Source: a phage
DNA length: 64,000 nucleotides
Strand: one strand, 5' to 3'
Sequence record: PV636258.1
The notes under the pieces were generated by a model. That model did not search any database. It had not been told where the DNA came from and saw only the letters and a program-made list of their open reading frames with translations. Below are positions 58,365 through 63,774 of the stretch, piece after piece (position 1 is the first letter of the stretch; every line of letters begins with the position of its first letter). The position numbers and the translations under genes are program-made.

Positions 58365-58685
58365 TTATCTTTGATTTCCAACGAAATTAGTTGCAATTTC
58401 ACGGCACATAGTCAGATCTTTAATAGTCTGTTTGCTGTTGTCTGCGGCAGATTCCATCATAGATAAATCAAGCGCATTCTCTATCTGGTCCACACTATAG
58501 AGATCAAGGCGTTTCAATTCACCTTCATAATCAGATAAAAGAATTGATGTATCCTTATCATCCGGATGGAATTGTTGATATGTAGACAACCAAGCAGCAC
58601 AAATATTCAACTTACTGGCCGGAGCTGCCAATACTTGGGAAGACATGAAAGTGCACAGGAATAACAATAAGATTTTGATTTTCAT
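58365..58685 (-). CDS. Small secreted/periplasmic protein
   Basis: 106 aa with N-terminal signal peptide (MKIKILLLFLCTFMSSQVLA); start overlaps the upstream stop. Confidence 0.45.
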   Translation of the reverse strand: MKIKILLLFLCTFMSSQVLAAPASKLNICAAWLSTYQQFHPDDKDTSILLSDYEGELKRLDLYSVDQIENALDLSMMESAADNSKQTIKDLTMCREIATNFVGNQR

Positions 58686-59371
58686 CTTTCGTTCTCCTTC
58701 ATCATATTATCACAGTCAATTCTTGTTTGCTTGAGTTCACGGGAAAGCCTTGGATCATCAAGATTGACAGACAAATTAGTGGAAAGATCTTTCAAACCAT
58801 TCTGAACACGGTCTTCATAATAATGATCATTTTCCACCAGCCATGCTCTCAGGCCAAGGGCGCGAGTCCGCCATTCCTTTTTCAAACGTCGATCAGATTC
58901 TTGATCAGCACTGTATTCAAATACTCGGATACATTGGTTGCCATCATTGATGAGATCCAGCTGACGTCGGCCAACCTGCACACCTTTTTGTAATGCTGGA
59001 GAAGGAAGAGAACGGCACTGTCTTACGGTCATTCGTCCTTGTGTGACCATACGACCAGTCATGATGAGATCGCCAGCCTCCATGCCTCCTCGGTTAAATT
59101 CTTCGTCGTTCATATATCCTTTCAGGTTGAATGCGCCTTGCTTATATCGATTAAACTCGATACCAGCATTTACAACGGCATCTGTGACATTACCTGTGGC
59201 CCAGAGTTCAGCAAAGTTCTCTATGGAACCAGTTTTGTCTATAGCCACGGCTTGGGAGAACCCAGCACAGTAGGAAAGATCAGACCACAGTTTTTCACCT
59301 GTGGAATTCAGCTTGGCTGTGGCAGGAAGTGCCAGACCAGCCAGCACAACCGCGATGATTAAACGTTTCAT
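58682..59371 (-). CDS. Secreted/periplasmic protein
   Basis: From the ATG at 59371 with AAGGAG SD: signal peptide MKRLIIAVVLAGLALPATA; 229 aa. Confidence 0.5.
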   Translation of the reverse strand: MKRLIIAVVLAGLALPATAKLNSTGEKLWSDLSYCAGFSQAVAIDKTGSIENFAELWATGNVTDAVVNAGIEFNRYKQGAFNLKGYMNDEEFNRGGMEAGDLIMTGRMVTQGRMTVRQCRSLPSPALQKGVQVGRRQLDLINDGNQCIRVFEYSADQESDRRLKKEWRTRALGLRAWLVENDHYYEDRVQNGLKDLSTNLSVNLDDPRLSRELKQTRIDCDNMMKENER

Positions 59372-59399
59372 GGTGATTCTCCTTATTTCATTGGATAAA

Positions 59400-59429
59400 A
59401 TGATAGGGCTGTCACCATGTTGAGTAAAG
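59400..59429 (-). promoter_or_regulatory. Sigma70-like early promoter (minus: TTTACT-N18-TATCAT)
   Basis: Read directly upstream of the secreted-protein gene. Confidence 0.35.
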
Positions 59430-59455
59430 GGTTTCAATAAACTATCGTATTCAGA

Positions 59456-59905
59456 TCAGTATCGACTATCACTGACCGTTCTGTATCGCACACCCTGAAA
59501 CTGTTTAGCGAGTTTAACAAATTCCATCGCTGGCAAATCAACTTTGTAGACCTTCATGCGCTGTTTGCCGTCCATGTTCAACGCAGCGACAAATCGGTGA
59601 GAACCGTCAACAACGTAATTGTCAGAAGACACCCAAACTCGACCCATGGGCTTCTTATTTCTGATCTGCTTCATAATCTTCCAGACCTTCATTTTATTGA
59701 TTTCGTTCTGGGTAAGACGAAGCATTTTGATAGGCACTTGCGCAGCATCTATAGACACGCCGTTGTCTTCAAGATATTTGTGAAAATCTTCTTGTTTGTC
59801 GGCATCGATTTGCGGCATCGAAGAACGAGAAAGCCCGAGGTTCCCAACAGGAATCCTCAGGCCATTTATGATATTCATCCAGTCAATAAAGGATGTAAGG
59901 AACAT
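59456..59905 (-). CDS. ParB-like nuclease domain protein (tentative)
   Basis: 149 aa; block VVDGSHRFVAAL resembles the ParB/Srx DG.HR..A motif. Confidence 0.45.
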   Translation of the reverse strand: MFLTSFIDWMNIINGLRIPVGNLGLSRSSMPQIDADKQEDFHKYLEDNGVSIDAAQVPIKMLRLTQNEINKMKVWKIMKQIRNKKPMGRVWVSSDNYVVDGSHRFVAALNMDGKQRMKVYKVDLPAMEFVKLAKQFQGVRYRTVSDSRY

Positions 59906-59942
59906 GACACACCTCGGGATATAGGGTTATCCCTTAGTTAGT

Positions 59943-60221
59943 TCATTCGGACTTAAACAGCAATTCGCGAACAGAAGTCCCAACGATATTCTGGGTGTTC
60001 AACAAACGAGTTAAATCATCCATGTCATATGCTGAATTGGTGATATGACGCAAGATAATCGCCAACATTCCCTCCAGCGCTCTCCGATTGTTATTCTCTT
60101 CAATGTCAAACTTAATTTCAACAAATCGAGATAGCATTCTGGATTGAGCATTTGTTTCGTTGGTTTTGCTCTGTATAATATCTTTGATTTCCGAACGAGC
60201 AATACTTCTTTGATCTGTCAT
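59943..60221 (-). CDS. Hypothetical protein
   Basis: 92-aa ORF, GAAGGAAC SD. Confidence 0.4.
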   Translation of the reverse strand: MTDQRSIARSEIKDIIQSKTNETNAQSRMLSRFVEIKFDIEENNNRRALEGMLAIILRHITNSAYDMDDLTRLLNTQNIVGTSVRELLFKSE

Positions 60222-60245
60222 GATATAGTTCCTTCATTTCAAATG

Positions 60246-60267
60246 GGCGGGGCAAAGATACCCCGCC
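60246..60267 (-). terminator. GC-rich stem-loop (GGCGGGG/CCCCGCC)
   Basis: 7-bp inverted repeat between two minus-strand genes. Confidence 0.4.
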
Positions 60268-60273
60268 GTGGGT

Positions 60274-60780
60274 TTATAGGGTAATAAGTGATACGGTAAA
60301 AACCATCGTCCCATCTGTTGCCATTTTTCTTGAAACTGGGAAGACGCGAGGCTGGCAGAATATCCATTCTTTCTCCATGGACGCCAAGTCCAGCATATCC
60401 ATTTCTGATTCATCGTCTTTGTTCACAAATTTTTCTAGAGAACCAAAGACATTAAGCCCCTCTGGGAGTCCGTTTCGATGTTTGTAACAAATGCGAGCAA
60501 CAGCTCTGGTTCCATACGATTTAGAAAATTGTTTGGCCACATGCTTCAATTCACTGAAGCTGAGACAAGAATCCCATGTCTGGAACATGTCGCCTCGTTC
60601 AAACATCATCTCTAAACGCACAACGTCCTCTTTAGGCAACCCACGATAAAGTGTGGTCATCTGCGGTTCGCGAAATTCTTGCACCAGATCACGGACGACA
60701 GGAGAAACAGTGCCAGGGCGCATAATATGGGACTTATCATGGACGAGGTAAAATAAATCTTGAATTTGTTGATCGGTCAT
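60274..60780 (-). CDS. Possible mono-ADP-ribosyltransferase (R-S-E type, ModA/ModB-like), tentative
   Basis: From the ATG at 60780 (168 aa): ordered candidate triad TLYRGL (Arg), CLSFSEL (S.S), MEKEW (E.E) with ART-like spacing. Confidence 0.35.
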   Translation of the reverse strand: MTDQQIQDLFYLVHDKSHIMRPGTVSPVVRDLVQEFREPQMTTLYRGLPKEDVVRLEMMFERGDMFQTWDSCLSFSELKHVAKQFSKSYGTRAVARICYKHRNGLPEGLNVFGSLEKFVNKDDESEMDMLDLASMEKEWIFCQPRVFPVSRKMATDGTMVFTVSLITL

Positions 60781-60806
60781 GGTGTAGTTCCTGCATTTCA
60801 AATCGA

Positions 60807-60824
60807 CGGGGTAATCATACCCCG
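60807..60824 (-). terminator. GC-rich stem-loop (CGGGGTA/TACCCCG)
   Basis: 7-bp inverted repeat; overlaps the implausible 5' extension of the track ORF. Confidence 0.4.
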
Positions 60825-60839
60825 CCCTAAGTTATAGAA

Positions 60840-61079
60840 TTAACTGACGTGCTTCAGAAGAGCGAAGAGGATCACGGCCTTGGCTTTCACCTTGCCGACG
60901 ATGCCTGTCTCAACATCGACTTCTTCCGCAACCCACTCTTTACCCTTCTTGCTAATGATGACGTCGCGGCGCTGGACGTATACCTCTTTCGTCGCATACA
61001 CACGACGGAACCCTTTAGCGCGGAGCAAGCCCCAATTACGGTCAATCTCCACTGAAGTTTCTACCATTTTGTTCTTCAT
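60840..61079 (-). CDS. Hypothetical protein
   Basis: 79-aa ORF, ATG start, own promoter. Confidence 0.4.
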   Translation of the reverse strand: MKNKMVETSVEIDRNWGLLRAKGFRRVYATKEVYVQRRDVIISKKGKEWVAEEVDVETGIVGKVKAKAVILFALLKHVS

Positions 61080-61130
61080 GATATAATCTTACCTTTCAAC
61101 CTGGTGAACCCATCGTTCGCCAGTTATTGA

Positions 61131-61159
61131 ATAATACGCATTTGCCTTATAGAAGTAAA
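61131..61159 (-). promoter_or_regulatory. Sigma70-like early promoter (minus: GTTTAC-N17-TATTAT)
   Basis: Read directly. Confidence 0.4.
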
Positions 61160-61174
61160 CCCCTAAAAGTAAAA

Positions 61175-61196
61175 ATCCCCAACGTTTGTTGGGGAT
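61175..61196 (-). terminator. Stem-loop (ATCCCCAAC/GTTGGGGAT)
   Basis: 9-bp perfect inverted repeat followed by T-tract on the minus strand. Confidence 0.5.
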
Positions 61197-61202
61197 CTTC
61201 AG

Positions 61203-61520
61203 TTACTTGCGCAGGGCAACGACGAGTTCAGCTAACTCTCCGAGGGTAGGATCATCTCCATGTTTACCCACCCACTCGTCACTAATTTCTACATCGTACT
61301 CTTCTTCGATTTCCATGACCAGCTCAATCATGTCAAGATCGTCACCGCCGAGATCATTCTTAACCCGTAACGGCGCTAAAGCATCGATATTATCATCAAT
61401 GTTATCAAACTTGTCCTTGTGATCCCCGTTGCGCCAAGTTTCCATGTTCAGGTTGTCACAAGCGTACTGAGCCAGAACACGCATTACTTCAACATAAGTT
61501 GGTTTGTTTGACATAAGCAT
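61203..61520 (-). CDS. Acyl-carrier-protein-like protein with Asp at the phosphopantetheine-attachment position
   Basis: LGGDDLDMIELVMEIEEEYDVEISDE aligns with ACP helix II (GADSLDTVELVMALEEEFD); codons GAC GAT CTT GAC confirm D-D-L-D. Confidence 0.5.
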   Translation of the reverse strand: MLMSNKPTYVEVMRVLAQYACDNLNMETWRNGDHKDKFDNIDDNIDALAPLRVKNDLGGDDLDMIELVMEIEEEYDVEISDEWVGKHGDDPTLGELAELVVALRK

Positions 61521-61533
61521 ATCTCAAAATGAA

Positions 61534-61549
61534 GGCGGGTTTCCCCGCC
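61534..61549 (-). terminator. GC-rich stem-loop (GGCGGG/CCCGCC)
   Basis: 6-bp inverted repeat between the vWA gene stop and the ACP-like gene start. Confidence 0.35.
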
Positions 61550-61557
61550 AGTTGAAT

Positions 61558-63774
61558 TTAGATTTTGACTTCTTTTTCAGCCAGTTCGGCAGTGACGGTG
61601 TATTTCACCCCATCAACTTCCACATCCATAGTGGATTCTTCCAAATCCAGGTCGGTAAACCAACCATGGCCTGCAACAATCCCATAAACTACCTTGGACA
61701 GCGTTTTGTTCAGGGCGCGGACTTCGTTGATAGCTGCTTTTGCTGCGTCTCCGATCCAACTTTCGATCAGCTTTTTCTGAGTCTCTTCCGGTACGCTGGT
61801 GATCATCGGTGATTTAACGAATGCATTGTATTCAGCCAGGGCATTAGCGATCAGCTGATCAGCGACATTCAGTTTTTTACCGTCCGTCTGTTTTTTGATA
61901 ACAGACGCGATGCTCGGCAGTGAAGATGCGCCTTTGATTTTCACATTCAATTCACGACTCATATAGACATCGGTTGATTCTACAGAAGAAGTCTTCGGTG
62001 AAAATCCATAGTCGCGAATGCCGTTTGCTGACAGGAAATCAGCCGCTTCTTTGCCATATTTTGAAGCCAGACCAGTAGCGTTGCCTTTGCCAACCAGTTC
62101 ATCACGGTAGAATTTCAGAACTTTCTGTTTTGCCTTCAATGCTTCACGGCGCACATTGTCTGCAAAGAATTCAGCAGCACTGATATTCTTTGTCATGGCG
62201 CGGTTAACCATTGGGACACTTTCCAGATTTACAATGAAGACTTCCGGCCCACCAAACACATGAACACCCATGGCAGTCAAATCCTGTGCCACCTTAGCCC
62301 GAACAATCGGAGAATCTGCAGTGATAGGCATTGTTTTCAGGTTGATGATACCATCCTTGACAATAGTGTAATTACGATAACGCCAGGTTCCCAGCTCTTC
62401 AGGAAGTTCATATTTCTTCTGTACAAACTCAGGCACAACAACCGTTCCGTGTTGAACTGTCTGCACACTGATGTTAGGACGTTCTGAATTATAGACCAAA
62501 TTGCTGATCGGGACAATCCCTTTATCATCTGCTGGATTGAATTCGGGGGTCCAATCTTCGTGCTCGGCCAGTTTGAGCGCCAGGGCTTTACGCTCTTCTT
62601 TAGAAGTCGCATTCGCAATCTCTTCGGCCAACTTGTCTTCGGTGTCATCAACTTTCTGTACAGTACCGCGCCCAATGCTCTTGTAAGAGAATAGCGGATG
62701 CTTGGTGACGATAGAGACATCTGCTTCAGCCAGATACGTCAGAACATCAACAATGGTGGTGGCGTCTTCAGCCGGAACCATATTATAATCGATGCCATCA
62801 ACTCCTCGCAGAGATTCGTCTACGATAGCCTGAGTCAGATCGACTTTGATGTTGGAATAGTCCTGCTTGGTGAAACAGTTGCTGTATTGTTTGATGAAGC
62901 GGACGTCACCCGTCTTCTTCAGCGCGGCCCAGACCAAATCGGCGTCCATGGTGTACACGCCATAGAATGCCAGCACGTATGCCGCCTGGGTGTCTGCCAG
63001 ATTATCCAGCTGGTCGATCATGTTGGGGTTTACAACCCACAGCTGAGAAACGCTTTCAGGGATGCTGACGTGGCCAATAGGGTGCTCTTCATCAGGATGC
63101 ACGGCTAAAACAGTCGCCACACCATTTTCAACATAAATGGCATGGGTGTAAACCAGGGGAACATCGACCACCACTTTCGGTGAAGAAGTTTTCAGCACGT
63201 TTTCCAATTCGGTCTGATATTCATTCTGGCCTTCGGCGAATACGTGGGTCGCACCAGAACGTTCTGCCATTAGCCCCAGCAGTTCGCGATTACAATACCA
63301 ACCGTATTCGATGAAGGTAATGTTATCAAACGCTTTGGGCAGTACTTCAGCGGCATCCAGGATTTCATTAGAACGCCAGCAGTTGTCATATCCGTCGGTC
63401 ATGAATGCCAGGTTATTAACATAACCAGGTTTATTCAGGCTAATGGCAGTTTCCGCAGCCAATTTCAGCGGCTCAACAAAACCAGTACAACCAGAAGGCT
63501 TCAGGAAACGGTCAATTAGATTATTGATCTCACTGAGATCAGTTGCACTGTTAATCTGACGTCCGGCAAATACCGTTCCGAAATCACCGCGAGATGAAAA
63601 GTAAAGGATGCTCACAGTATCTTCCGGTTTCACCAGGGAAGGCAGGTTCTCCTTCAGATGCTTACGGACTTCTGGAAGTGAACGATACATGGAACCGGAG
63701 ATATCCACAACGATTACATGGTTAGACGGCGCGACGGTCGCAACCGCATTCTTAAATGTTAATGATTCAATCAT
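61558..63774 (-). CDS. Large von Willebrand factor A (vWA) domain protein
   Basis: From the ATG at 63774 (738 aa): N-terminal MIDAS-type motif VIVVDISGSM; the track 5' extension is implausible. Confidence 0.55.
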   Translation of the reverse strand: MIESLTFKNAVATVAPSNHVIVVDISGSMYRSLPEVRKHLKENLPSLVKPEDTVSILYFSSRGDFGTVFAGRQINSATDLSEINNLIDRFLKPSGCTGFVEPLKLAAETAISLNKPGYVNNLAFMTDGYDNCWRSNEILDAAEVLPKAFDNITFIEYGWYCNRELLGLMAERSGATHVFAEGQNEYQTELENVLKTSSPKVVVDVPLVYTHAIYVENGVATVLAVHPDEEHPIGHVSIPESVSQLWVVNPNMIDQLDNLADTQAAYVLAFYGVYTMDADLVWAALKKTGDVRFIKQYSNCFTKQDYSNIKVDLTQAIVDESLRGVDGIDYNMVPAEDATTIVDVLTYLAEADVSIVTKHPLFSYKSIGRGTVQKVDDTEDKLAEEIANATSKEERKALALKLAEHEDWTPEFNPADDKGIVPISNLVYNSERPNISVQTVQHGTVVVPEFVQKKYELPEELGTWRYRNYTIVKDGIINLKTMPITADSPIVRAKVAQDLTAMGVHVFGGPEVFIVNLESVPMVNRAMTKNISAAEFFADNVRREALKAKQKVLKFYRDELVGKGNATGLASKYGKEAADFLSANGIRDYGFSPKTSSVESTDVYMSRELNVKIKGASSLPSIASVIKKQTDGKKLNVADQLIANALAEYNAFVKSPMITSVPEETQKKLIESWIGDAAKAAINEVRALNKTLSKVVYGIVAGHGWFTDLDLEESTMDVEVDGVKYTVTAELAEKEVKI

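Follow-up and report, generated by a model that had tools for sequence, protein, structure and literature searches.

A predicted Mod-family R-S-ExE mono-ADP-ribosyltransferase encoded at a variable locus of a Kuttervirus

Introduction

In mono-ADP-ribosyltransferases (ARTs) of the R-S-E (cholera-toxin-like) clade the motif ExE directs transfer of ADP-ribose to arginine, and enzymes with QxE have other acceptors, which for C3 is an asparagine of Rho. The closest described relatives of the protein reported here are ModA (NP_049635) and ModB (NP_049636) of T4, a phage of the Straboviridae in which the two genes lie in tandem. The acceptor of ModA is Arg265 of the RNA polymerase α subunit, and the T4 annotation names S1, EF-Tu and trigger factor as acceptors of ModB. 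Alt of T4 (NP_049811) likewise belongs to the phage R-S-E ARTs and has host proteins as its substrates, but it is a protein of 682 residues that is packaged in the virion. ModB has also been found to RNAylate rS1 and rL2, and the mutation R73A inactivates it (PMC10468400). In a survey of viral NAD+ and ADP-ribose systems, the ‘Mod family of the RSE clade’ was among the commonest viral ARTs (PMC9503650).

Here we describe an open reading frame in a 64-kb stretch of phage DNA (the whole of the DNA analysed, referred to as the window) that, judged from its sequence and from structural models, very probably encodes a stand-alone, single-domain R-S-ExE mono-ART of the phage Mod family to which T4 ModA and ModB belong. 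The protein is referred to below as the ART. The source phage is a Kuttervirus, neither T4 nor T4-like; at this locus it shares 99.5% identity with Salmonella phage Chennai and approximately 97% with Escherichia coli phage CBA120, both of the genus Kuttervirus (Ackermannviridae, Cvivirinae). CBA120, Det7 and their relatives are widely considered for biocontrol of Salmonella and E. coli O157. Literature searches for studies of an ART of Kuttervirus, CBA120 or Ackermannviridae returned nothing relevant.

Results

The open reading frame and its existing annotation

The features of the locus are collected in Table 1. The coding sequence runs on the minus strand from an ATG whose first base is position 60780 to a stop codon at 60274-60276, and the start codon is preceded by an AGGA Shine-Dalgarno sequence 8 nt upstream. 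The CDS of the CBA120 orthologue is annotated at 507 nt, that is 168 codons plus stop, which fits this start. A TTG codon at 60801 would give a protein of 175 residues; it lies inside the upstream hairpin, and both the Shine-Dalgarno sequence and the length of the CBA120 CDS speak for the ATG, so we rejected it.

Table 1. Coordinates of the ART gene, its conserved motifs and the flanking repeat (positions in the window).
Feature	Position	Strand	Description
Predicted Mod-family R-S-ExE ART, CDS	60274..60780	minus	168 aa, stop codon counted in; orthologue of CBA120 orf140
H14-D15-K16-S17-H18 codons	60727..60741	minus	Family-specific N-terminal HDKxH motif
Y45-R46-G47 codons	60640..60648	minus	‘R’ of R-S-E, putative NAD phosphate-binding Arg, predicted strand β-1; R46 at 60643-60645
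S74-F-S76 codons	60553..60561	minus	S-x-S/T motif (predicted β-2), extended by E77 and A82/F85: SFSExxxxAxxF
E136-K-E138 codons	60367..60375	minus	Putative catalytic ExE motif, ARTT loop / β-5; conserved W139 next
Upstream copy of 65-nt direct repeat	60769..60833	minus	GC hairpin GGCGGGGTATGATTACCCCG, leader ATTTGAAATGCAGGAACTACACC with Shine-Dalgarno, ART codons ATG ACC GAT CAA
Downstream copy of 65-nt direct repeat	60210..60274	minus	Leader of the next gene, 59943-60221 (92 aa)

The 95%-identical orthologue in CBA120 carries the RefSeq product name ‘RNA polymerase ADP-ribosylase’; in the original GenBank records it is a ‘hypothetical protein’. The target in the RefSeq name is a transferred family label, not an experimental result. 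A scan of the 721 stop-to-stop open reading frames of the window with an HMM picked out this one and no second ART. No promoter could be assigned, since a search of 59300-61700 for the σ70 consensus found four sites against 4.2 expected, which is the chance level. GC hairpins flank the gene on both sides, with no T-run at either in a terminator scan that was at the chance level for the locus. A literature search found no Kuttervirus transcriptome.

Family membership

Residues 2-159 of the ART match phrog_832, ‘RNA polymerase ADP-ribosylase’, with an E-value of 8.6e-16, and the same region of that profile is also matched by T4 ModA (1.7e-33) and ModB (1.1e-41). When a profile of 10 close homologues was aligned with the T4 proteins by hhalign, E-values of 9.5e-5 (ModA) and 1.3e-4 (ModB) were obtained with all three catalytic motifs in register. 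The motifs of the ART thereby fall on LWRG, SAS and EQE of ModA and on LYRG, SFT and EQEW of ModB, and R46 aligns with R73 of ModB. An HMM built from 48 family members scores 82.8 bits against ModB and 60.2 bits against ModA, in both cases over almost the full length. Within the Mod family the ART thus appears somewhat nearer to ModB than to ModA, and it has E-x-E-W in common with ModB; at an identity of approximately 23-24% to either protein over aligned columns, this nearness cannot assign a target.

Beyond phages, the family profile finds Vis, an NAD+-arginine ART (1.6e-5), and ExoT (1.2e-3) among the PDB sequences. The R, S-x-S and ExE motifs of the ART align with YRG, STS and EAE of Vis, and ExoT has STS as well. 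Searched one by one against Pfam, the 48 members gave five matches to ADPrib_exo_Tox, five to DRAT and one to NAD:arginine ART, and otherwise just DUF6853 (one member). The entry PF26816, ‘Mod_ADP_RT’, is recorded among precomputed matches for the homologues P0003 (79% identical), P0006 and P0011. As a single sequence, the ART matched nothing in NCBIfam, PADLOC or the PDB sequences; it had no match in Pfam either, which is uninformative because the copy used misses T4 ModA and ModB too.

Catalytic motifs and their conservation

A first-pass annotation of this DNA, made from its letters, had proposed an R-S-E mono-ADP-ribosyltransferase in a 168-aa open reading frame at 60274-60780, leaving the strand unstated. 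It pointed to three motifs, TLYRGL, LSFSEL and EKEW, cautioned that the call was based on short motifs only, and named lack of a predicted ART fold and variation of the motif residues among homologues as findings that would speak against it. The motifs are where it placed them, at residues 43-48, 73-78 and 136-139, and its caution was apt. A loose pattern, R...SxS...ExE at distances like those in ARTs, turns up in 12% of shuffled versions of the ART protein and in 12 of the 143 long open reading frames of the window; because it is so common, the motifs by themselves are weak, suggestive evidence, and the decisive support is conservation together with fold. The strict pattern [YFW]RG...Sx[ST]...ExE is found in 0.17% of shuffles and, among the open reading frames of the window, in the ART alone.

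Conservation was assessed in an alignment of 48 homologues (19-96% identity), drawn from 58 relatives that were recovered at E < 1e-3 when 1.84 billion representatives were searched exhaustively with an HMM. G47 and E138 are invariant in all 48, and L9, H14, K16, L44, R46, S74, E77, A82, F85, E136 and W139 are conserved in at least 90%. Position 76 is S or T in the 10 close homologues (55-96% identity). Instead of the variation that would have counted against the first proposal, the motif residues thus show conservation, at least 90% at R46, S74 and E136 and complete at G47 and E138.

A further stretch of the family, L-x4-HDKxH (residues 9-18, 60727-60756 in the window), shows conservation similar in strength to that of the catalytic residues. 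Within it, the 10 close homologues all have D15 and H18, which are also the consensus residues among the 48. HDKxH is not among the ART motifs known to us, and comparison with the sequences of T4 ModA and ModB shows that both proteins lack it.

Predicted fold

The AlphaFold2 model obtained from a shallow alignment of 10 sequences had a pLDDT of 82.5; with the 48-sequence alignment the pLDDT was 92.9 and the pTM 0.87, and the five models were concordant. In Foldseek searches of the PDB with both models, the top 50 matches were all R-S-E ARTs (best E 1.6e-7 to 2.9e-7, TM approximately 0.5-0.6), among them HopU1, C3bot/C3lim/C3cer, ExoS/ExoT, Tre1, Plx2a, XopAI, Vis and CDTa. Among the predicted viral structures of BFVD, the best matches outside the protein's own family were ADP-ribosylases annotated as such and homologues of ModA/ModB from T4-like phages (E 1e-10 to 1e-11, TM 0.65-0.70). 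The ART fold, a split β-sandwich with N-terminal helices whose absence had been the other finding named against the proposal, is therefore predicted; together with the arginine in an aromatic-R-G context, S-x-S/T and [QE]-x-E, the protein has the sequence marks and the predicted fold of the R-S-E clade. Conservation, predicted fold and homology to ModA and ModB all support the class originally proposed. The analogy drawn at that stage with the Mod enzymes of T4 is apt too, even though the phage is a Kuttervirus; PHROG 832 is common to the ART, ModA and ModB.

Comparison with described ARTs

ModA and ModB resemble the ART in being small, stand-alone, single-domain phage proteins of the same PHROG, and outside its own family they are its nearest neighbours among predicted viral structures. 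They differ from it in length (200 and 207 residues as against 168, a difference of 30-40 residues, with a shorter N-terminus in the ART), in lacking the N-terminal L-x4-HDKxH and in genomic setting, the modA-modB tandem of T4 contrasting with a single copy in the window of this Kuttervirus. Because the ART is shorter and carries HDKxH, its target may differ from those of ModA and ModB.

The bacterial arginine-specific ARTs HopU1 (3u0j), Vis (4xzj), ExoS/ExoT (6gn*), Tre1 (6dre) and the CDTa/iota-like enzymes have the same fold as that predicted for the ART (Foldseek E 3e-7 to 5e-4). Identity to these R-S-ExE toxins is 10-18%; the ART is without secretion, translocation or 14-3-3-binding modules and, unlike the toxins, is predicted to act within the bacterium that the phage has infected. 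Clostridial C3 exoenzymes (1g24, 1r45, 2c8*), which are similar in size and also single-domain, account for more of the structural matches than any other group. The likeness is one of fold only: C3 enzymes have QxE, whereas at least 90% of the homologues of the ART have E at position 136, and a C3-type QxE enzyme is thereby ruled out. A relationship to T4 Alt was likewise rejected (hhalign probability 0.2%, E 0.31); Alt belongs to PHROG 802, not 832. The locus was also considered as a toxin-immunity pair of the Tre1-Tri1 type, with an immunity or ADP-ribosylhydrolase gene next to the ART, which we rejected; neither neighbouring gene (59943-60221, 60840-61079) matches Pfam, and both belong to PHROGs of unassigned function. 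A fixed partner gene was rejected too, as the content of the neighbourhood varies between phages.

A variable slot bracketed by a direct repeat

The 2.2-kb surroundings of the gene match 224 phage records and the ART is present in only 78, so the gene is accessory. In ST-W77, and in several other phages, the slot is taken by denV, which encodes endonuclease V, a pyrimidine-dimer glycosylase (2330-2785 of the ST-W77 locus, L005, opposite 60237-60775 of the window). Phage Guerrero (L006) has small genes of unassigned function there. The ART allele of phage ‘barely’ is 56% identical to the one described here, although the DNA on either side of it is 91-94% identical.

The ART open reading frame is bracketed exactly by the two copies of a 65-nt direct repeat, which are 82% identical. 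Each copy consists of a GC hairpin (GGCGGGGTAT...CCCCGCC) and a leader (ATTTGAAATGNAGGAACTAYAYC) that includes the Shine-Dalgarno sequence, followed by the codons ATG ACN GAT CAA, and both the ART and the next gene (59943-60221) begin with MTDQ. The window has no more such hairpins than these two. The breakpoints of the cassette relative to ST-W77 and Guerrero lie at 60236 and 60776/60777, inside the repeat leader. As the breakpoints in the sister phages fall in the repeated leader, the arrangement suggests that cassettes are exchanged at a regulatory element present in two copies.

The immediate neighbours of the ART encode proteins belonging to PHROGs of unassigned function, an acyl carrier protein and a VWA protein. 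The acyl carrier protein gene (61203-61520, minus strand; PP-binding, phrog_4154) is directly downstream of the gene for the 738-aa protein with a von Willebrand factor A domain (61558-63774, minus strand), and a GC hairpin lies between the two at 61534-61549. On the other side, a 149-aa protein (59456-59905, minus strand; phrog_2859, no Pfam match) has a motif, DGSHR, that recalls domains of the ParB/sulfiredoxin type. The protein is called a ‘ParB N-terminal domain-containing protein’ in Guerrero and a ‘putative structural protein’ in barely, the latter by reference to the virion of Dickeya phage Limestone. Just downstream of this neighbourhood are two overlapping genes, 58365-58685 and 58682-59371 (both minus strand), whose counterparts in sister phages bear the annotations Rz-like spanin and i-spanin. 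Going by these annotations, a lysis function is interleaved with small accessory genes.

Discussion

Proposed mechanism

The ART is predicted to be arginine-specific, because the first residue of its ExE motif is Glu, and to modify proteins of the host during infection. Its activity as an enzyme, its specificity for arginine, the time at which it is expressed and the identity of its target are what we infer here. Going by the chemistry of the clade, the 19-kDa enzyme would bind NAD+ after the Kuttervirus has infected Salmonella or E. coli. R46 would contact the phosphates of NAD+ and S74-x-S76 would hold the nicotinamide-ribose side, and E138 would act in catalysis by stabilising the oxocarbenium intermediate. 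The other glutamate of ExE, E136, would orient the guanidinium of the acceptor arginine, and ADP-ribose would thus be moved onto arginines of host proteins. If ModA and ModB are a guide, the likeliest acceptors would be host proteins of transcription or translation, modified in the course of host takeover.

Alternative explanations

It is possible, though rather unlikely in our estimation, that an active Mod-family ART modifies a defence or stress protein of the host, as a means of counter-defence, and not RNA polymerase or the translation apparatus. Such a role concerns the target and is compatible with the enzymatic class assigned above. It would suit an accessory gene whose slot is held by denV in ST-W77 and by small genes in Guerrero, and the divergent allele between well-conserved flanks in barely points to the fast turnover that conflict genes typically show. 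A different docking surface is hinted at by HDKxH, which ModA and ModB lack, and there is a precedent in AcrIF11, a phage ART reported to inactivate CRISPR (PMC12421852). However, the locus has neither a defence-related neighbour nor a known anti-defence signature, and T4 modA and modB are non-essential accessory genes as well, so that variability does not discriminate between targets. Less probable again is that the ART, like ModB, mainly uses NAD-capped RNA as its donor and attaches RNA chains, in place of plain ADP-ribose, to host proteins. The RNAylation of rS1 and rL2 by ModB (PMC10468400), the higher score of the family profile against ModB and the E-x-E-W common to the two proteins are in its favour; against it, identity to ModB is low and no sequence feature is known to predict acceptance of NAD-RNA.

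Very much harder to sustain is the view that the motifs are a chance resemblance, or that the protein has the ART fold but is catalytically dead and serves a structural or binding role. The frequency of the loose motif pattern in shuffles and in other open reading frames of the window would allow it, as would the lack of a curated-family match for the query alone, although the Pfam copy used misses ModA and ModB too. The catalytic positions are, however, kept across the 48 homologues, where loss would be expected in a dead enzyme, and the evidence for fold and homology (Foldseek, BFVD, family HMM, AlphaFold2) is strong. An active Mod-family mono-ART is accordingly the reading that we prefer.

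More speculatively, the branch of the Mod family that carries HDKxH might be a functionally distinct subfamily, with another acceptor or donor, that serves as an exchangeable cassette in Kutterviruses; we hold this to be doubtful. HDKxH might then dock a different partner, either an acceptor such as a defence or stress protein of the host or a donor such as NAD-capped RNA. The cassette may alternate with denV, and the repeated hairpin-plus-leader element could be the recombination joint.

Significance and distant homologues

The ART call is correct but already known at the annotation level, because RefSeq already gives this function to orthologues that are 95% identical and Pfam has an entry for the family. 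Kutterviruses are thereby predicted to carry a host-modifying enzyme of the T4 Mod type as an optional gene, and identification of its target would add to a theme already familiar. The case also illustrates that a real R-S-ExE ART can be recognised from three short motifs by a reader of the sequence.

Distant homologues of the ART domain are embedded in proteins of 260-980 aa overall, and five of them (P0013, P0023, P0031, P0056 and P0059) lie inside multidomain proteins of 420-980 aa. The multidomain homologues keep HDKxH, YRG, SFSE and EKEW, and P0059 seems to contain two ART-like modules. They resemble the polyvalent proteins that phages inject together with their DNA (PMC5512222).
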